Shown: positions 24,462-54,001 of the stretch, piece after piece
Numbering within the stretch: the first letter of the stretch is position 1
Layout: every line of letters begins with the position of its first letter
NCBI RefSeq assembly: GCF_055900595.2
Contig: NZ_CM148325.1
Strand: one strand, 5' to 3'
Length of the DNA stretch: 64,000 nucleotides
Made by a program: the position numbers and the translations under genes
Notes under the pieces: generated by a model
What the model was told of the DNA's origin: nothing
The model's database searches: none
What the model saw: the letters and a program-made list of their open reading frames with translations, nothing else

Positions 24462-26126
24462 TCAGGCTACCTTTTCGACAGAAACGTCGACATCAGGGCG
24501 GTTGAGTGTCATCACGGACGCCAGTTTATTCAGCGTATTACCCAGAGTTTGCGGAATGGCGATGGCGGCAACAAAGCGATCCGGGCGCATCACCACTAGC
24601 GAAGCATTATGTTGTGCGAACCAGCTACGCATGCGACCTTGCGTATCGCCCACGCGCAGCACGCCGTCGTAGTTATCCTGCGCGGTATGAATTTGCACAT
24701 CCGGCACCACCTGAATGAAGCGAGTACCCAGCGCGCGCCATTGCTGGATTTGCTCATCGCTCATCCCCCACAGTGGATTGCATCCCCAGCCAATTACCGC
24801 GAAGTTCGCGCCGATCGCGTTATCGAGCAACGTCACGTCGCCGTTTTCCAGCGTAACTTTCGGCTGAATAAACATCTTGCCGACCGGAGAGTGTTTCGCT
24901 TCGCCTTCACGCACCAGCGCACCGGCGTAATATTGCGGCATCGGCTTGAAGCGCATTTCGAGAAAGTAGCGTTTTACTGGCGGCAGATAATTCAGCAGCC
25001 AGGAAACACCGTCACGTAACGTACCCTGCCAGCGTTTCGGCGGAGCCAGTACGTTGCCCGCCGTCACCGACAGATCAATCATCGCTTTGGCGTGATCGCG
25101 ACGTTCTTGTTGATAGGTATCGAGCAGCGCATCGCGAGCTTTCCCCTGGATAACCAACGCCAGTTTCCAGGCGAGGTTAAAGGCGTCGCGCATACCACTG
25201 TTATAGCCCTGCCCCTGCCACACCGGCATGATATGTGCGGCATCGCCCGCCAGCAGTACGCGGTCAATACGAAAACGTTGTGCCAGTCGCGCGTTGTGGG
25301 TGTAGACACGCTGGCGAATCAACTCGACGTTGTCCGGATTAGGCAGCACTTTGCTTAACAGCTTGCGCATATTTTGCGGCTCGCGGAGCTGTTCTTCGGT
25401 TTCGCCCGGCATCACCATAAATTCAAAGCGACGTACCGCATGAGGCAGAGCCGCAGAAACATACGGGCGCACCGGATCGCAACACAAATAGATATGCGGC
25501 GTACTTAACGGATCGTTGGCGATATCCACCACAATCCACTGATTTGGTGCGGTTTTACCTTCAAACGGCACATTCAGGGTGCGCCGGACAAAACTTGCTC
25601 CACCGTCACAGGCTACCAGCCACTGGGCTTTGACCGTTTCCCGCTGCCCTTCTGCCGTTTTCAGATACAAGGTCACTTCGTCATCTTGCTGGCTGAAGGC
25701 CTCCAGCTCGCGGGAAAACAGGCAGCGCACATTCGGAAACCGCGACAACCCTTCCAGCATCACCGCATCGACCTGCGGCTGAATAAAGGCGTTACGACGC
25801 GGCCAGCCAAATTCATCGGTCATTGGCTGAATATCAGCAAAACAGCGGCCTTTTGGGGTAAGAAAACGCATCGCATGCCACGGCGTAGTGTGCGGCAGAA
25901 CATTATCGACAAGGTCAACCGACTGCATGGTGCGCAGCGCCTCGTCATCAATTCCAATCGCGCGTGGATAGTCGATCAACTTATCGAGTTTCTCCACCAC
26001 CAGCACGTCAATGCCCATCTGGCCGAGATAGTTCGCCATCATCAGCCCGACCGGACCGGCACCAGCGATCGCCACCTGAACGCAATGGTTAATAGCAGGC
26101 TGGATGTCAGGGTGTTGTATTGCCAT
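24462..26126 (-). CDS. mhpA: 3-(3-hydroxyphenyl)propionate hydroxylase (FAD monooxygenase)
   Basis: 554 aa with N-terminal GAGPVG FAD-binding fold. Confidence 0.92.
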
Positions 26127-26267
26127 TTCAGTACCTCACGACTCGGAAAAAATGCCGTTGCGCGCACAGTTCAACGCAACTTATTTTGTTAAAAACATGT
26201 AAATGATTTTTTATTGTGCGCTCAGTATAGGAAGGGTGTTTTCGGCTACAATCAAAACATGCCTGAG

Positions 26268-26284
26268 TGTGCACCAGGTGCACA
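26268..26284. promoter_or_regulatory. 17-bp perfect palindrome TGTGCACC-A-GGTGCACA in the mhpR-mhpA divergent region, candidate MhpR (IclR-type) operator
   Basis: Perfect 8-bp arms around a central base, 33 bp upstream of the mhpR ATG. Confidence 0.55.
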
Positions 26285-26316
26285 ACGTTGTTTTAAATAT
26301 AGAAATGTCAATTAAT

Positions 26317-27150
26317 ATGCAGAAAGATGAGCAGACGGAATACAAAACCGTGCGCGGCTTAACCCGCGGTCTAATGTTATTAAATATGTTAAATAAACTC
26401 GATGGCGGTGCCAGCGTCGGGCTGCTGGCGGAGCTCAGCGGCCTGCATCGCACCACTGTGCGGCGACTGCTGGAAACGCTGCAGGAAGAGGGATATGTCC
26501 GGCGCAGTACCTCCGATGACAGTTTTCGTCTGACCATCAAAGTGCGGCAATTAAGCGAAGGATTTCGTGACGAACAATGGATTTCTGCACTGGCAGCCCC
26601 GCTGCTGGGCGATCTGTTGCGCGAAGTGGTATGGCCGACAGATGTGTCCACGCTGGATGTTGATGCAATGGTGGTACGCGAAACCACCCACCGTTTCAGC
26701 CGTTTATCTTTTCACCGGGCAATGGTCGGACGGCGTTTACCGCTCCTGAAAACCGCCTCGGGACTGACCTGGCTGGCCTTTTGCCCGGAACAAGAACGCA
26801 AGGAGTTAATCGAAATGTTAGCCGCCCGCCCCGGTGATGACTATCAACTGGCACGGGAACCGTTAAAGCTGGAAGCCATTCTGGCGCGCGCACGCAAAGA
26901 GGGTTACGGACAGAACTACCGTGGCTGGGATCAGGAAGAGAAGATCGCCTCCATTGCCGTGCCCCTACGCAGTGAACAACGGGTGATTGGCTGTCTGAAT
27001 CTGGTGTATATGGCAAGCGCAATGACCATCGAACAGGCAGCGGAAAAGCATCTTCCGGCGCTACAACGGGTAGCAAAACAGATCGAAGAAGGGGTTGAAT
27101 CGCAGGCTATTCTGGTGGCCGGACGGCGAAGCGGCGTGCATTTACGCTAG
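26317..27150 (+). CDS. mhpR: IclR-family transcriptional activator of the mhp operon
   Basis: ORF 26203-27150; start set at MQKDEQTEYKTVRGLTRGL... giving 277 aa. Confidence 0.88.
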   Translation: MQKDEQTEYKTVRGLTRGLMLLNMLNKLDGGASVGLLAELSGLHRTTVRRLLETLQEEGYVRRSTSDDSFRLTIKVRQLSEGFRDEQWISALAAPLLGDLLREVVWPTDVSTLDVDAMVVRETTHRFSRLSFHRAMVGRRLPLLKTASGLTWLAFCPEQERKELIEMLAARPGDDYQLAREPLKLEAILARARKEGYGQNYRGWDQEEKIASIAVPLRSEQRVIGCLNLVYMASAMTIEQAAEKHLPALQRVAKQIEEGVESQAILVAGRRSGVHLR

Positions 27151-27252
27151 TTGCGCCAATGTGTAATTTGGCCCATTCTCATCGTTATTCGCCCATTTGC
27201 CCACATGCACAGTACGGGCTGCACGCTACGCTAATGCCATCAATACTGTGAT

Positions 27253-28041
27253 GTGGAGCAAATCATGAAAATTACTCAAATTCGTAATGCCACCCAAATT
27301 ATCCAATACGCTGGCAAAACATTTCTTATTGACCCGTTACTCGCGCCTAAAGGAAGTTATCCGGGTTTTGCCGGAACGGCACGCGCAGAAATCCGCAATC
27401 CAACGGTAGAATTACCGTGCGATTTAACAACGTTACTCAACGTTGACGCCCTAATAGTGACCCATTTGCATGAAGATCATTGGGACGAAACAGCCTCCCG
27501 CGTCGTCCCCAAAGATAAACAGATTTATGTGCAAAATGAGCAAGATGCTGAATCACTGCATAAACAAGGATTTACGCATCTTACCGTACTTGCCGACGAG
27601 ACTAAATTTGGCGATATTACTCTGCATAAAACGACAGGGCAGCACGGCTCCGATCGCACCTATGCAGACCCGGCTATGGCGAAGCGTTTAGGCGCAGCCT
27701 GCGGCGTTGTTTTCCAGCACCCGACAGAGAAAACGCTCTATCTGGCTGGCGATACCCTCTGGCGTGATGACGTCGAGGCTACAATGCTAACTTTCCAACC
27801 AGAAGTGGTGGTGTTGAATGCCGGATTTGCGCATGTTCTGGGGCATGGCGCGATAATTATGGGAGCTGAAGATATTCTCAAAACACATTTTACCCTGCCA
27901 GAAGCGCAAATTGTCGCGACACATATGGAGGCCGTAAACCACTGTTTGCTGACGCGTGATGCGCTCAAGGAATACGCCAGAGATAATCAAATTATCGAAT
28001 TTGTGAACGTACCAGAAGATGGTGAAACGTTGACATTCTAA
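27253..28041 (+). CDS. MBL-fold metallo-hydrolase
   Basis: 262 aa with the HxHxDH signature THLHEDH; start could be ATG 27265 (MKITQ). Confidence 0.75.
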   Translation: MEQIMKITQIRNATQIIQYAGKTFLIDPLLAPKGSYPGFAGTARAEIRNPTVELPCDLTTLLNVDALIVTHLHEDHWDETASRVVPKDKQIYVQNEQDAESLHKQGFTHLTVLADETKFGDITLHKTTGQHGSDRTYADPAMAKRLGAACGVVFQHPTEKTLYLAGDTLWRDDVEATMLTFQPEVVVLNAGFAHVLGHGAIIMGAEDILKTHFTLPEAQIVATHMEAVNHCLLTRDALKEYARDNQIIEFVNVPEDGETLTF

Positions 28042-28060
28042 TTCGGAGATAAAGAGTGTT

Positions 28061-29014
28061 ATGCGCCCGCTAACTGTTGCCATTATCGCCGTTGCCGGTT
28101 TTAGTCCTTTTCACCTTTCCGTACCGTTTATCGTGTTTAGCGAAAAAATGGCGGAGAAAAAACGCTTTCATGTAATTATCTGCGCTGAAAAGCCGGGAAA
28201 TGTGGACTCTGCCGATGGGTTTTCCGTAACCGCCACCCATGACTATACGGCAGTCATCCAGGCGGATATTGTGATAATTCCTTACTGGGGAACAATTACA
28301 CAAAAACCGCCACAAAAACTGCTGGAAGCCTTAACGATCGCACGAGATAACGGGGCACAGATTGTCGGGCTTTGCCTGGGCACGTTTGTGCTCGGCTATG
28401 CAGGTTTACTGAACAATAAGCGTGCTGCCACGCACTGGGAGTTCGAGCGTGAATTTCAGGCACGTTTTCCACAAACACATCTGGATATTAACGCGTTGTA
28501 TGTAGACGATGATGGCATTATTACCTCTGCCGGTACTGCCGCGGCGCTGGATTGCTGTTTGTATATTGTTCGGCAACATTTTGGCAGCGACTATGCTAAC
28601 CATATTGCCCGACGGATGGTCGTACCGCCATATCGCACCGGCGGTCAGGCGCAGTTTATAGAGCAACCGGTGCCGAAAAATACCCATGATGAACGCATTA
28701 ACCTCCTGCTGGATTACCTGCGGCAAAACATTGCGCAACAGCATGATCTCGACTCGCTGGCTCAGCGAGTAATGATGAGTCGCCGCACACTAACCCGTCA
28801 TTTTATGAAAGCGACCGGTTCGAGTATCGCCGAATGGCTCATCACTGAACGCTTACGCCGTAGCCAGGAACTGTTGGGATCCAGTCAGTTGCCCGTTGAG
28901 CGGATAGCGGCTGAGGTGGGTTTTCTCTCACCTGTGACCTGGCGTCAGCATTTTAAATCTCACTTCGGCGTCAGCCCCGCAGAATGGCGCAAAACCTTTC
29001 GTGGTATGGCATGA
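28061..29014 (+). CDS. GlxA-type transcriptional regulator (DJ-1/PfpI-like N-domain plus AraC-family HTH)
   Basis: 317 aa; C-terminal AraC-type HTH region (SRRTLTRHFMKATGSSIAEWLITERL...); 3' end overlaps the lacI promoter. Confidence 0.75.
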   Translation: MRPLTVAIIAVAGFSPFHLSVPFIVFSEKMAEKKRFHVIICAEKPGNVDSADGFSVTATHDYTAVIQADIVIIPYWGTITQKPPQKLLEALTIARDNGAQIVGLCLGTFVLGYAGLLNNKRAATHWEFEREFQARFPQTHLDINALYVDDDGIITSAGTAAALDCCLYIVRQHFGSDYANHIARRMVVPPYRTGGQAQFIEQPVPKNTHDERINLLLDYLRQNIAQQHDLDSLAQRVMMSRRTLTRHFMKATGSSIAEWLITERLRRSQELLGSSQLPVERIAAEVGFLSPVTWRQHFKSHFGVSPAEWRKTFRGMA

Positions 29015-29015
29015 T
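28987..29015 (+). promoter_or_regulatory. lacI promoter: -35 GCGCAA at 28987-28992 and -10 CATGAT at 29010-29015
   Basis: Matches the canonical lacI promoter sequence GAATGGCGCAAAACCTTTCG-GGTATGGCATGATAGCGCC; here it lies inside the last 10 codons of the upstream ORF. Confidence 0.75.
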
Positions 29016-29050
29016 AGCGCCCGGAAGAAAGTCAATTCAGGGTGGTGAAT

Positions 29051-30126
29051 GTGAAACCAGTAACGCTATACGATGTCGCGGAGTATGCCGGTGTCTCTTA
29101 TCAGACCGTTTCCCGCGTGGTGAATCAGGCCAGCCACGTTTCAGCGAAAACGCGGGAAAAAGTGGAAGCGGCGATGGCGGAGCTAAATTACATTCCCAAC
29201 CGCGTAGCACAACAGTTAGCGGGCAAACAGTCGTTGCTGATTGGCGTTGCCACCTCCAGTCTGGCCCTGCACGCACCGTCGCAAATTGTCGCGGCGATTA
29301 AATCTCGCGCCGATCAACTGGGTGCCAGCGTGGTGGTGTCGATGGTAGAAAGAAGCGGTGTCGAAGCCTGTAAAGCGGCAGTACACAATCTTCTCGCGCA
29401 ACGCGTAAGTGGTCTGATCATCAACTATCCGCTGGATGACCAGGATGCCATTGCTGTGGAGGCAGCCTGCGCTAATGTTCCGGCGCTATTTCTTGATGTC
29501 TCTGACCAGACTCCCATCAACAGTATTATTTTTTCCCATGAAGACGGTACGCGGCTGGGCGTAGAGCATTTGGTCGCATTGGGTCACCAGCAAATCGCGC
29601 TGTTAGCGGGCCCATTAAGTTCTGTCTCGGCGCGTCTGCGTCTGGCGGGCTGGCATAAATATCTTAAACACAATCAAATTCAACCGATAGCGGAACGGGA
29701 AGGCGACTGGAGCGCCATGTCCGGTTTTCATCAAACCATGCAGATGCTGAATGAGGGCATCATTCCTACCGCGATGCTGGTTGCCAACGATCAGATGGCG
29801 CTGGGTGCAATGCGCGCCATTACCGAGTTCGGGCTGCGCGTCGGCGCGGATATCTCGGTAGTGGGATACGACGATACCGAAGACAGCTCGTGTTATATCC
29901 CGCCATTAACGACCATCAAACAGGATTTTCGCCTGCTTGGGCAAACCAGCGTGGACCGCTTGCTGCAACTCTCTCAGGGCCAGGCGGTGAAGGGCAATCA
30001 GCTGTTGCCCGTCTCACTGGTGAAACGAAAAACCACCCTGCCACCCAATACGCAAACCGCTTCTCCCCAGGCGTTGGCTGATTCCTTAATGCAGCTGGCG
30101 CGACAAATTTCCCGACTGGAAAGCGA

Positions 30127-30133
<7 letters not shown>
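29051..30133 (+). CDS. lacI: Lactose operon repressor
   Basis: GTG start at 29051 (MKPVTLYDVAEYAGVSYQTVSRVVNQ...), 360 aa; the track ORF begins 9 bp earlier. Confidence 0.96.
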
Positions 30134-33330
<3,197 letters not shown>

Positions 33331-49558: not shown

Positions 49559-50191
49559 ATGGATCCCTTGCACGCCGTTTACCTGACCGTAGGACTGTTC
49601 GTGATGACTTTTTTTAATCCGGGAGCCAATCTTTTTGTGGTGGTACAAACCAGCCTGGCTTCCGGTCGACGCGCAGGAGTGCTGACCGGGTTGGGCGTGG
49701 CACTGGGCGATGCGTTTTATTCCGGGTTGGGTTTGTATGGTCTTGCGACACTCATTACGCAGTGTGAGGAGATTTTTTCGCTTATCAGAATCGTAGGCGG
49801 CGCTTATCTCTTATGGTTTGCGTGGTGCAGCATGCGCCGCCAGTCAACACCGCAAATAAGCACACTACAACAACCGATTAGCGCCCCCTGGTATGTCTTT
49901 TTTCGCCGTGGATTAATTACCGATCTCTCTAATCCACAGACCGTTTTATTTTTTATCAGTATTTTCTCAGTAACGTTAAATGCTGAAACACCAACTTGGG
50001 CACGTTTAATGGCCTGGACGGGAATTGTGTTCGCATCAATTATCTGGCGAGTCTTTCTTAGTCAGGCGTTTTCTTTGCCCGCTGTGCGTCGTGCTTATGG
50101 GCGTATGCAACGCGTTGCCAGTCGGGTTATTGGTGCAATTATTGGTGTATTCGCGCTACGCCTGATTTACGAAGGAGTAACACAGCGGTGA
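49559..50191 (+). CDS. yahN: LysE/RhtB-family amino-acid exporter
   Basis: 210 aa polytopic protein MDPLHAVYLTVGLFVMTFFNPGANLFVVVQTSLA... Confidence 0.85.
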   Translation: MDPLHAVYLTVGLFVMTFFNPGANLFVVVQTSLASGRRAGVLTGLGVALGDAFYSGLGLYGLATLITQCEEIFSLIRIVGGAYLLWFAWCSMRRQSTPQISTLQQPISAPWYVFFRRGLITDLSNPQTVLFFISIFSVTLNAETPTWARLMAWTGIVFASIIWRVFLSQAFSLPAVRRAYGRMQRVASRVIGAIIGVFALRLIYEGVTQR

Positions 50192-50316
50192 GCAGATAAT
50201 TTACTCTCTACGTAATCAACCTGATTTGCCGAATCCCGCTCATCGGCGATGATACCCCCCGTAATGCGTGGTCCTTATTTCCGATAAGTTTACTTGAGTC
50301 TTTAGCTTCCCATTTC

Positions 50317-50346
50317 AGCCCACTCTCCCCTGTGTGGGCTTTTTTC
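50317..50346 (+). terminator. Rho-independent terminator-like hairpin AGCCCAC-N10-GTGGGCT followed by TTTTTT
   Basis: 7-bp GC-rich stem plus T6 run on the plus strand, about 125 bp after the yahN stop. Confidence 0.5.
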
Positions 50347-50417
50347 ATTTGTCTGCTTCAGTGAGTAGCTGGCCATGCTCCATCCACTCTGCAAGGATGA
50401 TAATAAGAGGATCTGAT

Positions 50418-50600
50418 TCAGAAGAGTTTTGAAAAATTGGACCGCCATCGAGGCCTCGAACCCCGTACCATACAACAATCCTGGTTGTCGTCTGCTCTTC
50501 CTGATGAGCTAATGGCGGTTTGTGATATGAGCCTTACAGCATATTGTCTGTCAGGCTTGAGTGCGATGCGTAAGATACAGAAAAGACCCCACACAAACAT
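50418..50600 (-). CDS. Hypothetical small protein (60 aa) in a low-GC intergenic stretch
   Basis: Track ORF only; no recognisable motif; may correspond to the yahM position or be spurious. Confidence 0.2.
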   Translation of the reverse strand: MFVWGLFCILRIALKPDRQYAVRLISQTAISSSGRADDNQDCCMVRGSRPRWRSNFSKLF

Positions 50601-50820
50601 GATGGAATTATGATTTTTTTCATATGAATGTCAACCAACACATTCATAAAACACTCGCACAAGTTCACTTTTTAAGCAACATGACGCCGATCACAACAAA
50701 ATATCGGCGAAAAAGGAGGGTAAATGCCATTTGACGTAGAGATAAGCAGATGAAATGATTACCCGCTTTGCGATTCACTCTCTGATGGAATAACAAATTG
50801 GAGATGGAAAAGTTTCTAAA

Positions 50821-51636
50821 CTAAAGAGTGTAGCGTATTTTAACGTGCTTATTTACAGGATAATATTTGTCACCTAATTCCTGCACTCTATTAGATACCC
50901 ATTGATTTAATCGTGCATCATCTCTGTATGTTTTCACGTTCAGAACGGAGAGCAATAACATCACTAGCGATTCAGGAAAAACAGGGTAAATATTTTTTAA
51001 GTGCAATAATAATTCATACGCAAGCGCCTGCTTAATAGGTGCGTCTGCATCCGGAATGCGCGACATTTCGCGAAGCCATTTTTCTACATGCTCACATTCT
51101 TTCCCTTCACGGAAAAGTCTCAACAAAGGCATATGGTGCTCAAGAAGAATGCATTTGCAATCTGTTCGTACTGAATCGATAAACTGCACTAATTTCTTAA
51201 GTCCGGTGAAGCGTCCGGCATGGATATTCTCTTTAATATCAAGAAACACGTCATCCTGATCATATACCCAAACGGTCCCTTTTTGATTTTCAAGTATCCG
51301 AAAAACAAACTTAATCGGGTAATCAGGGTAATCCACCCAGTCATAAACTCCAGGGAAATCATTAAACTGCACATTTATGGTAAGCGCATTGTCGGCTGCC
51401 CACTCGCAATCTCGTACGGCAGCCATGAGATAAATGAGTTTATCATCATCGACTAAATCATCACGACAATCATAAGGATAATCATAGTATTGTTTAATCA
51501 AAACCTTGAATATATCGACACAAGAAACCAGTGTACTTCTGATATCTTCAGGTAACTGATTGTTTTTAAACGTATTGTGTACGCTTTGTTTCGTATATAG
51601 CAACAAATTATTGTGCGGCGCTTTTAATGGTATCAT
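50821..51636 (-). CDS. yahL: Uncharacterised protein YahL
   Basis: 271 aa ORF in an AT-rich stretch; no domain recognised by eye; synteny between yahN and yahK. Confidence 0.75.
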   Translation of the reverse strand: MIPLKAPHNNLLLYTKQSVHNTFKNNQLPEDIRSTLVSCVDIFKVLIKQYYDYPYDCRDDLVDDDKLIYLMAAVRDCEWAADNALTINVQFNDFPGVYDWVDYPDYPIKFVFRILENQKGTVWVYDQDDVFLDIKENIHAGRFTGLKKLVQFIDSVRTDCKCILLEHHMPLLRLFREGKECEHVEKWLREMSRIPDADAPIKQALAYELLLHLKNIYPVFPESLVMLLLSVLNVKTYRDDARLNQWVSNRVQELGDKYYPVNKHVKIRYTL

Positions 51637-51805
51637 TGCGATCTCTCTTAAATAAAAATAAACGTCGCAGATAATAAAGCCCTGATTAAACCAGGCACTA
51701 TCAGAAATCGCTCATAACTAACGAGTGAAGTATTGTGTACTGGAGGGAGTTATTTTAACAATTTGAATTTACGTTATAGGTTTTACCGCTACTTTGATAT
51801 TATTT

Positions 51806-51839
51806 CGCTCTCCTTAACTAAAAAGTTAAGTGGAGAGCG
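51806..51839 (-). terminator. Hairpin CGCTCTCCTTAACT-AAAAA-GTTAAG-TGGAGAGCG downstream of yahK
   Basis: About 13-bp imperfect stem, 40 bp 3' of the yahK stop on the minus strand. Confidence 0.4.
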
Positions 51840-51878
51840 AAGTTAATATGTTAAACCACAGGGTATTTATTAATTGTT

Positions 51879-52928
51879 TCAGTCTGTTAGTGTGCGATTA
51901 TCGATAACAAAACGATATTTCACATCTCCTCGCAGCATTCGCTCATAGGCTTCATTAATTTGATCGGCCCGAATCATCTCTATATCAGCCACGATGCCAT
52001 GTTCGGCGCAAAAATCGAGCATCTCCTGTGTTTCTGGAATGCCGCCAATCATAGAGCCGGCTATCGCGCGGCGTTTCATGATCAGGTTGAAAACTTCCGG
52101 CGATTTATGCGGTGTCGCAGGCGCACCAACCAGCGTCATGGTGCCATCGCGCTTCAGCAAGGTGGTAAAATCGTCGAGATTATGTGGCGCAGCTACGGTA
52201 TTCAAAATGAAATCGAAACTCTTCACATGAGCCGCCATCTCATCGGCATTGCGCGAGTTAACAACTTCATCGGCCCCAAGGGCTTTTGCCGCTTCGCGTT
52301 TTGACTCAGACGTGGTAAACGCCACTACATGCGCCCCCATCGAGTGGGCCAGCTTTATCCCCATATGCCCCAGACCGCCAATGCCGACCACTCCCACTTT
52401 TTTACCCGGCCCGGCCTGCCAGTGACGCAGCGGCGAGTACGTGGTGATCCCTGCACACAATAAAGGCGCCACCGCCGCCAGTTGCGCTTGCGGGTGACGA
52501 ATACGCAGAACATATCGCTCGTGAACGACAATCTGTTGTGAGTAGCCGCCCAGCGTATGGCCCGGTTCGTCCGGCGTCGGCGAGTTATAGGTGCCGGTCA
52601 TGTGATCACAGTAGTTTTCCAGCCCGTCTTCACACTCTTCGCAATGTTTACAACTGTCGACAATGCAGCCGACACCGACCAGATCGCCCGGCGCATATTT
52701 TTCTACCTGATCACCAACGGCTACCACGCGCCCTACAATTTCATGGCCCGGCACGCAGGGATAAACCGTCCCCGCCCACTCGGAACGGACCTGGTGGATA
52801 TCGGAATGGCAGACGCCACAGTAAGCGATTTCAATTTTGACATCATGCGGTCCCGGTTCACGCCGGGTAATATCCATCGGTTCCAGCGGTTGTTTAGCGG
52901 AATATGCACCAACAGCTTTGATCTTCAT
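51879..52928 (-). CDS. yahK: Zinc-dependent NADPH aldehyde reductase
   Basis: 349 aa MKIKAVGAYSAKQPLEPMDITRREPGPHDVKIEIAYCGVCHSD... with GHEIVG zinc-ADH motifs. Confidence 0.9.
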   Translation of the reverse strand: MKIKAVGAYSAKQPLEPMDITRREPGPHDVKIEIAYCGVCHSDIHQVRSEWAGTVYPCVPGHEIVGRVVAVGDQVEKYAPGDLVGVGCIVDSCKHCEECEDGLENYCDHMTGTYNSPTPDEPGHTLGGYSQQIVVHERYVLRIRHPQAQLAAVAPLLCAGITTYSPLRHWQAGPGKKVGVVGIGGLGHMGIKLAHSMGAHVVAFTTSESKREAAKALGADEVVNSRNADEMAAHVKSFDFILNTVAAPHNLDDFTTLLKRDGTMTLVGAPATPHKSPEVFNLIMKRRAIAGSMIGGIPETQEMLDFCAEHGIVADIEMIRADQINEAYERMLRGDVKYRFVIDNRTLTD

Positions 52929-53014
52929 TGTGTTTACTCCTGATTAGCTATATGTATTTGGCGATGACTGAAATGCCATCGCAGCAAAACGCGTCCATTG
53001 AATATAGCCAATAT

Positions 53015-54001
53015 TTAAACCACCCGATCCAGTCCCAACATGCCGCGAGCCTGAATGAAACAGAGCAGCAACGTTCCCCATAAGGCCATCGTCAGGTAGG
53101 GGCTTATCCCGAGAATATTGAAGCCGCTTTCAATAATTTGCAGAAGAAACAGCGCCAGCACCATACCAATTATCCGCCCGCTGCCGCCGTCCGGATTAAC
53201 CCCGCCGAGTACTGCCGCGAGGATTGACACCAGCAAGTACGATTCGCCATAAGAGGCCTTAGCCGAGTTGAGTTTCGACATCATCAAAAATGCCGCTACC
53301 GCACAAAGCAAGGCGGAAATGACATACACCCATATCAGCACCCGACGCGTGTTAATACCGGAGTAAAGTGTTGCTCGTTCGTTAGAACCAATCAGATAAA
53401 TGGATTTACCGAGCGGCGTTTTCTCCAGCAATATCCACAGCCCCAGCGCCACTGCGGTAAACAACCACATCGGTAGCGGAATACCGAACCACTGTGCATG
53501 ATTCAACCACAGCACCCATGAGGGATAATTGGCAATGGCGCTACCGCCTGTCACCAGAATATTTACCCCTTTGAGCAACGTCATCATCCCAAGCGTTGCA
53601 AGAATTGGCGACACTCGAATACCGGCAATCAATACGCCATTACATAAACCAATTATCACCGCCGCACCAGCGCCCGCCAGCAGCGTAGCGACAACCGTAG
53701 TAATACCCGGCGGATACTGAGTCGCCACCCACGCCATCACCAGTGAACAGGCGTTAGCGGTAGCAATAATTGACAAGTTAATGCCGCCACAAAGCATGGT
53801 CACCGCCATAGCCAACGCCAGAATGCCCAGCACGGGCATTTGCGAAGCGACAGACTGGAAGTTACTTATCGACCAGAAAATCTCCGGCATAGTAATGCTG
53901 AACGCGGCAACAGTTAGCACCAGCAGGCCGATCAAATAAAACTCAACGTTATTACGCCACGATTTTTTCATAGCAGACTCCGGTTCTGATGCTGACTCCA
54001 C
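53015..54001 (-). CDS. Sugar ABC transporter permease (CUT2/ribose-like family)
   Basis: 328 aa polytopic protein; 34-bp overlap with the upstream permease. Confidence 0.8.
   Translation of the reverse strand: MESASEPESAMKKSWRNNVEFYLIGLLVLTVAAFSITMPEIFWSISNFQSVASQMPVLGILALAMAVTMLCGGINLSIIATANACSLVMAWVATQYPPGITTVVATLLAGAGAAVIIGLCNGVLIAGIRVSPILATLGMMTLLKGVNILVTGGSAIANYPSWVLWLNHAQWFGIPLPMWLFTAVALGLWILLEKTPLGKSIYLIGSNERATLYSGINTRRVLIWVYVISALLCAVAAFLMMSKLNSAKASYGESYLLVSILAAVLGGVNPDGGSGRIIGMVLALFLLQIIESGFNILGISPYLTMALWGTLLLCFIQARGMLGLDRVV

Follow-up and report, generated by a model that had tools for sequence, protein, structure and literature searches.

The promoter of lacI, the Lac repressor gene of Escherichia coli, has been described in detail for strain K-12, and its −35 and −10 hexamers (GCGCAA and CATGAT) are attributed to Calos (1978) in PMC4217526 and PMC7049694. 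The lacIq allele is described as one CG-to-TA substitution in the −35 and lacIq1 as a 15-bp deletion by which a TTGACA comes to lie 18 bp from the −10 (PMC4217526), and an engineered NheI site overlapping the −10 requires an A-to-C change there (PMC7049694). Between mhpR and lacI, enterohaemorrhagic E. coli (EHEC) O157:H7 EDL933 carries O-island 19 (OI-19), whose size is given as 1834 bp (PMC8565820) and which consists of two genes, z0443 and z0442 (ovrA). In O157 the AraC-type regulator OvrA binds GACATTTAATGATAATG in the LEE1 promoter of the locus of enterocyte effacement (LEE) and activates ler; for z0443, which goes by the name of a hypothetical protein, reviews report no virulence phenotype of the deletion (PMC8565820, PMC10877973). 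A third related system is formed by the sax genes of Pseudomonas syringae and Pectobacterium: SaxA hydrolyses isothiocyanates to amines and carbonyl sulfide (PMC7036374, PMC7303113), and in Pseudomonas saxA is paired with the regulator gene saxC (PMC12903958). Here we analysed a stretch of 64,000 nucleotides (contig NZ_CM148325.1 of RefSeq assembly GCF_055900595.2; hereafter the window) from a divergent, non-O157 dog isolate (the window is 100% identical to Z0117EC0005), which carries a gene pair equivalent to OI-19 in locus, number of genes, size and mhpR-lacI position. However, while the EHEC literature treats OI-19 as an O157-specific island, the pair in the window is apparently ancestral and common to Citrobacter, and its 3′ edge is the lacI promoter. 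We propose, with a probability of about 0.9, that the lacI promoter of K-12 is what remained of the 3′ end of ovrA after a deletion from an ancestral mhpR-hydrolase-ovrA-lacI arrangement.

The overlap between gene and promoter can be read directly from the window, where GAATGGCGCAAAACCTTTCGTGGTATGGCATGATAG at 28982–29017 spans the 3′ end of ovrA and contains GCGCAA and CATGAT separated by 17 nt. Both hexamers and the spacer length are identical to those of K-12 and one spacer base differs; unlike in K-12, the promoter is still part of a live gene, and its sequence is thereby also protein-constrained. The assignment of the hexamers was taken from the K-12 literature and not from a prediction tool. 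The descriptions of lacIq and lacIq1 agree with it (the lacIq change hits GCGCAA, codons W309–K311), and the A-to-C change of the NheI site fits CATGAT followed by AGC, which agrees with the same assignment. A generic consensus promoter scan of the window did not flag the lacI promoter, which stayed below threshold presumably because its −35 matches TTGACA at only two of six positions, in line with its known weakness. A simple reason can be offered for this poor −35, namely that the hexamer encodes Trp-Arg-Lys of a conserved helix. A preliminary description of this DNA had named two genes between mhpR and lacI as missing from K-12 and had placed both hexamers in the last codons of the regulator gene, with the TGA stop inside the −10; both statements proved exact. 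The features concerned, in window coordinates, are the following.

26317–27150, plus strand: mhpR (open reading frame list; annotation of both the O157 and the K-12 locus in RefSeq; alignments)
27151–27264, plus strand: intergenic region between mhpR and the hydrolase gene, not in K-12
27265–28041, plus strand: metallo-β-lactamase (MBL)-fold hydrolase gene, z0443 orthologue, 258 amino acids from the ATG of RefSeq
28061–29014, plus strand: ovrA, z0442 orthologue, GlxA/AraC regulator of 317 amino acids with the C-terminus SPAEWRKTFRGMA-stop
27150–28981, no strand: interval missing from K-12-type genomes, ~1.83 kb, from alignments
28982–29014, plus strand: ovrA stub kept in K-12, 33 nt, codons 308–317 and the stop, in frame
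28916–29014, plus strand: ovrA stub of the B2-type, 99 nt, called a partial GlxA-family pseudogene by the Prokaryotic Genome Annotation Pipeline
28929–29014, plus strand: ovrA stub of plasmids, ~86 nt, decayed and frame-broken, upstream of lacI
28987–28992, plus strand: lacI promoter −35, GCGCAA, in ovrA codons W309-R310-K311, same as K-12
29010–29015, plus strand: lacI promoter −10, CATGAT, holding the ovrA TGA stop at 29012–29014
29051–30133, plus strand: lacI, GTG start, 36 nt past the ovrA stop
30256 onward, plus strand: lacZ (open reading frame list)

In MG1655 the gap between mhpR and lacI measures 76 nt and contains no genes. The left homology of K-12 and the window stops within the last codon or the stop of mhpR (...CGC TAG in the window, ...CGT TGA in K-12); this stop, which is TAG in the window, TGA in K-12 and TAA in strain KS-NP019 at one shared position, lies at or beside the left edge of the K-12-type deletion. 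In place of 27150–28981, K-12 has a filler of 8–10 nt, GACACCAT, which aligns to neither side, and its homology restarts at (C)GAATGGCGC, i.e., at ovrA codon 308, six bases ahead of the −35. From the C preceding GAATGG on, K-12 equals the intact O157 form at every base, and it differs from the window at three positions past the junction: that C (A at 28981 in the window), the spacer base mentioned above and one base of the 5′ untranslated region. Judged by these alignments, the K-12 match to the ovrA 3′ end is contiguous homology rather than chance, and the ~1.83 kb missing from K-12 match the published size of OI-19. The suggestion of the preliminary description that the K-12 lacI promoter is a fossil of the 3′ end of the regulator gene is thus borne out by the lack of the two genes in K-12 and by an in-frame match of the K-12 sequence to the regulator C-terminus. 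The filler itself is polymorphic: most strains read CGT TGA CACCATC GAATGG, and KS-NP019 reads CGT TAA TGCCGCC GAATGG, which is of equal length, contains five transitions in 10 nt and extends the ovrA match by four bases (CCGCCGAATGG). Two sources of the filler were considered. A template for TGACACCATCG was not found in the window, where only a match with one mismatch occurs (position 835), at chance level, and a microhomology model (GCGCCAATG at 27155 vs. CGCCGAATG at 28977) predicts the junction length correctly and its sequence wrongly.

The same difference between strains could arise in the opposite direction. The usual reading of OI-19 is that of a horizontally acquired island, inserted into a K-12-like mhpR-lacI spacer in such a way that the reading frame of the regulator runs into a promoter already present there. 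It agrees with the cataloguing of the pair as an O-island that is not in K-12, and with the G+C content of the two genes (47.6% and 51.0%), somewhat under the ~55–56% of mhpR, lacI and lacZ (52.5% in the whole window). However, the codons that would have been gained by such a run-on spell a terminal motif of the AraC domain that is conserved in homologues unrelated to lac. In 80 OvrA-like loci outside Escherichia, collected from bacterial contigs at one genome per species and encoding proteins with 48–80% identity, the C-terminus is readable in 78, and these show SPxEWR[KR]TF or a close variant; the sources include Citrobacter, Kluyvera, Erwinia, Aeromonas, Geomonas, Marinobacter and Burkholderiales, and among the 80 loci no lacI was found alongside the homologue outside Citrobacter. 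The −35 region of K-12 thus spells the conserved end of the AraC domain (the Pfam HTH_18 match reaches residue 311), and the idea that the EWRKTF residues are dispensable C-terminal additions is contradicted by this conservation.

Synteny in Citrobacter also stands against an insertion in E. coli. In fourteen species of Citrobacter the genes for hydrolase and regulator lie upstream of the lac genes, with lacI detected in 13; in C. sedlakii the pair is at the syntenic site, in the order mhpR-hydrolase-regulator-lacI-lacZ and with the same ~36-nt gap, and the promoter again lies inside the regulator 3′ end (GCGAAA ... CATGAT): GAATGGCGAAAAACCTTTCGCGGTATGGCATGATAG. In the 13 other species the pair is accompanied by an extra insertion. 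Moreover, no integrase or other mobility gene, insertion sequence, tRNA gene or flanking repeat was seen at the edges of the pair in the window, and the region holds only two open reading frames, with metabolic or regulatory domains.

Finally, E. coli and plasmids contain ovrA stubs that are longer than that of K-12. In SF-166 and ATCC 11775 (the type strain), whose junction we take to be that of phylogroup B2, a larger deletion begins beside yaiL, takes in the whole mhp cluster and ends within ovrA, of which it leaves 99 nt. About 1280 plasmids, mostly of Klebsiella, carry the ~86-nt stub upstream of lacI, with a 1-nt deletion and several substitutions, and with GCGCAA and CATGAT both intact; the presence of this stub beside the plasmid lacI indicates that an ovrA-lacI chromosome was the source of the plasmid lac region. 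Stubs longer than the K-12 one could not result from insertion at a K-12-like site. Hence the K-12 promoter region is read as a deletion remnant on the strength of synteny in the outgroup, of the C-terminal motif conserved among homologues and of stubs that arose independently and differ in length, and the insertion of an island, which we consider very improbable, is in effect already refuted. This lac region is a mobile one and occurs on plasmids of Klebsiella, Enterobacter and Raoultella, with a stub ~92% identical to E. coli; an example is plasmid II of Klebsiella pneumoniae Kp52.145 (locus L088, 2500–2620).

According to the deletion reading, the ancestral order would have been mhpR, a saxA-like hydrolase gene, ovrA, lacI and lacZYA, as retained in the window strain, in O157:H7 and its relatives and in C. 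sedlakii. A weak constitutive sigma-70 promoter of lacI would have lain inside the last eleven ovrA codons (stop included), with the −35 in the codons that specify W-R-K, conserved in the last helix of the AraC domain, and the −10 overlapping the stop. The K-12 lineage would then have lost ~1.83 kb, from the mhpR stop to ovrA codon 307. Deletions here would persist only if the lacI promoter were spared, so that a 33-nt coding stub could survive as the lacI promoter, and the same filter would have acted on at least two further independent truncations, those of B2-type chromosomes and of Klebsiella-type plasmids. By their sequence relationships, the lac regions of K-12-type and B2-type genomes and of the plasmids are all truncated forms in which the promoter part of the ovrA coding sequence has been kept, and selection for LacI expression would explain why the breakpoints always fall upstream of the promoter.

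This scenario presumes that the embedded promoter probably drives lacI already in intact strains. Alternatively, intact strains might express lacI mainly by read-through from the hydrolase and ovrA genes (or from mhpR), the hexamers becoming functional only after the deletion. The four genes mhpR, hydrolase, ovrA and lacI are co-directional, with gaps of 114, 19 and 36 nt, and in a generic scan none of these gaps contained a terminator-like site; such sites were seen only within ovrA, at chance frequency, and the same kind of scan detected neither a consensus promoter nor a terminator in 27151–27264. The −35 is, furthermore, very poor. Yet the hexamers and their 17-nt spacing are exactly kept in all the independent stubs, even in that of the plasmids with its broken frame, and in Citrobacter the −10 block TGGCAT[G/C]ATAGCGC stays by lacI despite the 770-bp insertion after ovrA. 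This persistence, including that of both exact hexamers in a plasmid stub with a decayed reading frame, points to selection on the promoter itself. Read-through as the main source of LacI is therefore unlikely in our view, and read-through from ovrA may still contribute to lacI expression.

Several observations were made on the Citrobacter insertion. In the C. freundii complex ~770 bp lie between the stop of the intact regulator gene and lacI (locus L004, 6955–7735; equivalents in L006–L015 and L017), and they hold an open reading frame of 202 amino acids on the opposite strand, which by eye reads as a putative methyltransferase. The regulator C-terminus is slightly different in this complex (RGD, RGV, RGA), and a second, decayed copy of the regulator 3′ end with the promoter block, AAAACC...TGGCAT[G/C]ATAGCGC, stands directly upstream of lacI. 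C. youngae ATCC 29220 has a shorter remnant of the insertion, of ~112 nt.

The state of the locus was counted in 5426 complete E. coli genomes. The K-12-type junction was found in 4462 (82%), the B2-type junction in 487 and the intact pair in 435 (8%), the three states together accounting for 5384. The intact state is all-or-none, as all 435 matches span the whole pair; in 417 of these genomes (O157:H7, O145:H28 and relatives) the pair is ~97.6% identical to that of the window, and in 18 it is at least 99% identical. Among the matches in one-genome-per-species contigs no OvrA relative came from another Escherichia species, the top matches outside E. coli being those of Citrobacter (76–80%). 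The low share of intact genomes and the lack of the pair in representative genomes of other Escherichia species would also suit an acquired island.

How the minority of E. coli came to hold the intact form is a separate matter. At 29051–33330 (lacI-lacZ) and 50000–54000 (yahK-yahN) the window is 93–94% identical to more than 5000 complete E. coli genomes, and only ~9–10 genomes are at least 99% identical to it there; by this comparison the window strain is a deeply divergent lineage labelled E. coli, and it may be cryptic-clade-like. Against O157:H7, the flanks at 25601–27000 and 29201–30600 diverge by ~5–6% and the module at 27001–29200 by ~2.2%, from which it follows that the module is of more recent common ancestry than its surroundings. 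Such a tract-like signature suggests that homologous recombination moved the module between lineages. One version of the history is then that the deletion is ancient and near fixed, and that phylogroup E (O157:H7, O145:H28, O55:H7) re-imported the module from a divergent Escherichia lineage like that of the window, with mhpR and lacI as flanking homology; the OI-19 of EHEC would then be a genuine, though homologous, acquisition and the K-12 promoter would be a fossil all the same. The contrast in divergence holds for mhpA, the mhpR 5′ part, the lacI 3′ part and lacZ; the flanks of O157 are 98.4–98.7% identical to K-12 and those of the window 94.6–95.5%; the window lineage is ~6% diverged from nearly all E. 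coli at the two other loci; and its module allele is shared at 99% or more by 18 genomes, its other regions by only 9–10. On the other side, the lower divergence of the module, as seen in this comparison of sequence identity, could partly reflect constraint. We regard such a re-import as possible, at clearly less than even odds, and the remnant origin of the K-12 promoter is unaffected by it.

Some points weigh against the descent of the K-12 promoter from ovrA by simple deletion and vertical inheritance elsewhere. The G+C content of the pair lies below that of its flanks, and some intact copies may have been re-imported rather than vertically kept. Within Escherichia the intact pair is so far documented only in E. 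coli and not in E. fergusonii, E. albertii, E. marmotae or further species. With the non-aligning, polymorphic 8–10 nt at the junction, the K-12 breakpoints given here are approximate, and the predicted promoter activity within intact ovrA rests on the K-12 assignment.

The remnant origin has a consequence for a widely used allele. If a deletion took place, the K-12 sequence upstream of the lacI promoter is its scar, and this scar reads CGT TGA CAC C, i.e., it includes a perfect TTGACA, formed in part by the mhpR stop, 33 nt upstream of CATGAT (K-12 locus L001, 2080–2092, minus strand). At that position the intact form has CTAGTT instead of TTGACA, and the KS-NP019 allele has TTAATG. Since the 15-bp deletion of lacIq1 puts a TTGACA 18 bp from the −10, which arithmetically fits the junction, the consensus −35 of lacIq1 appears to be the ancient K-12 deletion scar; the TTGACA of this widespread allele exists solely at the K-12-type junction and not in the intact form. 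The textbook lacI promoter would in this way gain an origin in an AraC-family coding sequence, as an instance of the familiar phenomenon of a promoter inside an upstream gene that outlives the deletion of this gene. The genes themselves (ovrA, OI-19) were already known; an earlier description of the lacI promoter as a gene remnant was not found in the searchable literature, a weak negative result, as many subscription papers are outside its coverage. The view of OI-19 as an O157-specific acquisition is corrected to that of a segment common to Citrobacter, and the stub next to lacI can mark the lineage of a lac region, whether chromosomal or plasmid-borne.

What was lost with the deletion can be approached through the hydrolase. 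The window protein is 98.5% identical in amino acid sequence to O157 z0443 and matches Pfam Lactamase_B_2. It aligns over its full length with the crystallised SaxA of PDB 6BRM (53.7% identity, 259 columns, E = 2.8e-87), entitled 'putative metal-dependent isothiocyanate hydrolase SaxA', and the HxHxDH metal motif is kept, THLHEDHWDE aligning with THTHTDHWDE of 6BRM. SaxA members only 44.9% identical to each other are both functional (PMC7036374), and activity has been reported in all five clusters of the family, CL1–CL5 (PMC7036374, PMC7303113); the identity to 6BRM falls within the range of proven SaxA enzymes, which differ by up to 55%. By this comparison z0443 is a clear SaxA-family homologue and a predicted isothiocyanate hydrolase. 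The "hypothetical" z0443 thereby gains a testable function. The preliminary description had called the pair uncharacterised, which stands for z0443 in E. coli, apart from its SaxA kinship, and does not stand for the regulator, a published activator of LEE.

The likeness to the sax genes (54% identity to SaxA, metal motif kept) extends to the pairing of saxA with a regulator gene, in Pseudomonas saxC and here ovrA, whereas no saxB or efflux genes lie beside the pair in the window. The comparison of z0443 with SaxA is one of sequence, and that of OvrA with SaxC one of gene pairing. The hydrolase gene adjoins the regulator gene in 64 of the 80 non-Escherichia loci (co-directional in 38, divergent in 26), which speaks for the two genes being a functional unit long predating LEE. 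The deleted module was probably a unit for detoxifying isothiocyanates or related electrophiles under OvrA control. In such a history an isothiocyanate-detoxification module, with a SaxA-type hydrolase and its cognate regulator, would later have been co-opted by EHEC for LEE control. From the predicted activity of z0443, a class of natural ligands may further be proposed for OvrA, the virulence regulator. A bolder version, which we put forward as doubtful, is that OI-19 is a diet-sensing module, in which OvrA would sense isothiocyanates (e.g., by modification of Cys105) and have the switching on of the SaxA-type hydrolase as its native job, so that LEE of EHEC would be tuned by isothiocyanates from crucifers, met in the gut or on produce. 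As a terminator ahead of lacI is lacking, isothiocyanates might also alter Lac repressor levels by read-through. Most E. coli would then have lost the circuit except for its final 33 nt, the lacI promoter. For experiments, the SaxA link of z0443 and OvrA is the most promising lead.

OvrA of the window, encoded between the MBL gene and lacI, is 99.4% identical in amino acid sequence to that of O157:H7, and the name ovrA is already present in some RefSeq records. Its Pfam matches, DJ-1_PfpI at 6–171 (3.8e-11) and HTH_18 at 233–311 (3.4e-19), give the GlxA/AraC architecture, the same two-domain arrangement as in the GlxA-family regulator GbdR and in the 'FtrA' model. The best NCBIfam match is FtrA (NF006902), full length at 323.2 bits; orthology to FtrA was rejected, as this score is under the equivalog cutoff of 425, and so was orthology to GbdR, the match to which is far under the NCBIfam cutoff. 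Cys105 (28373–28375), in the nucleophile elbow VGLCLG of the DJ-1/PfpI domain, is invariant in 82 of 82 sequences, independently of a SaxA-like neighbour, which is compatible with sensing of a ligand or electrophile, though not specific for it. The motif that OvrA binds at LEE1 has no match near the module; the whole window holds one site, in lacZ, with three mismatches, which is no more than chance predicts (16 of 100 shuffles).

An adjacent SaxA-like hydrolase gene is missing for about 16 of the 80 OvrA-like regulators, among them every one found in Pseudomonas (loci L046, L050, L052, L057, L067 and L083; about ten further loci make up the rest). Their C-terminal motif is shifted to S(S/A)YRQSF or AWRQTF, and a separate paralogous subgroup, with another target, is a possibility.

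The lac control region downstream of lacI (30134–30262 in the window) was also compared with K-12. O1 is intact and several classic positions differ: the CAP site reads TGTGAGTCAGCTCACT in the window vs. TTAGCTCACT in K-12, the lac promoter spacer has five substitutions (CCTGATGTGTCCGACTCG vs. CTTTATGCTTCCGGCTCG), the sequence directly 5′ of O1 is GTATGAAATTG vs. GTGTGGAATTG, and the Shine-Dalgarno region of lacZ is AGGATACAGCT vs. AGGAAACAGCT.

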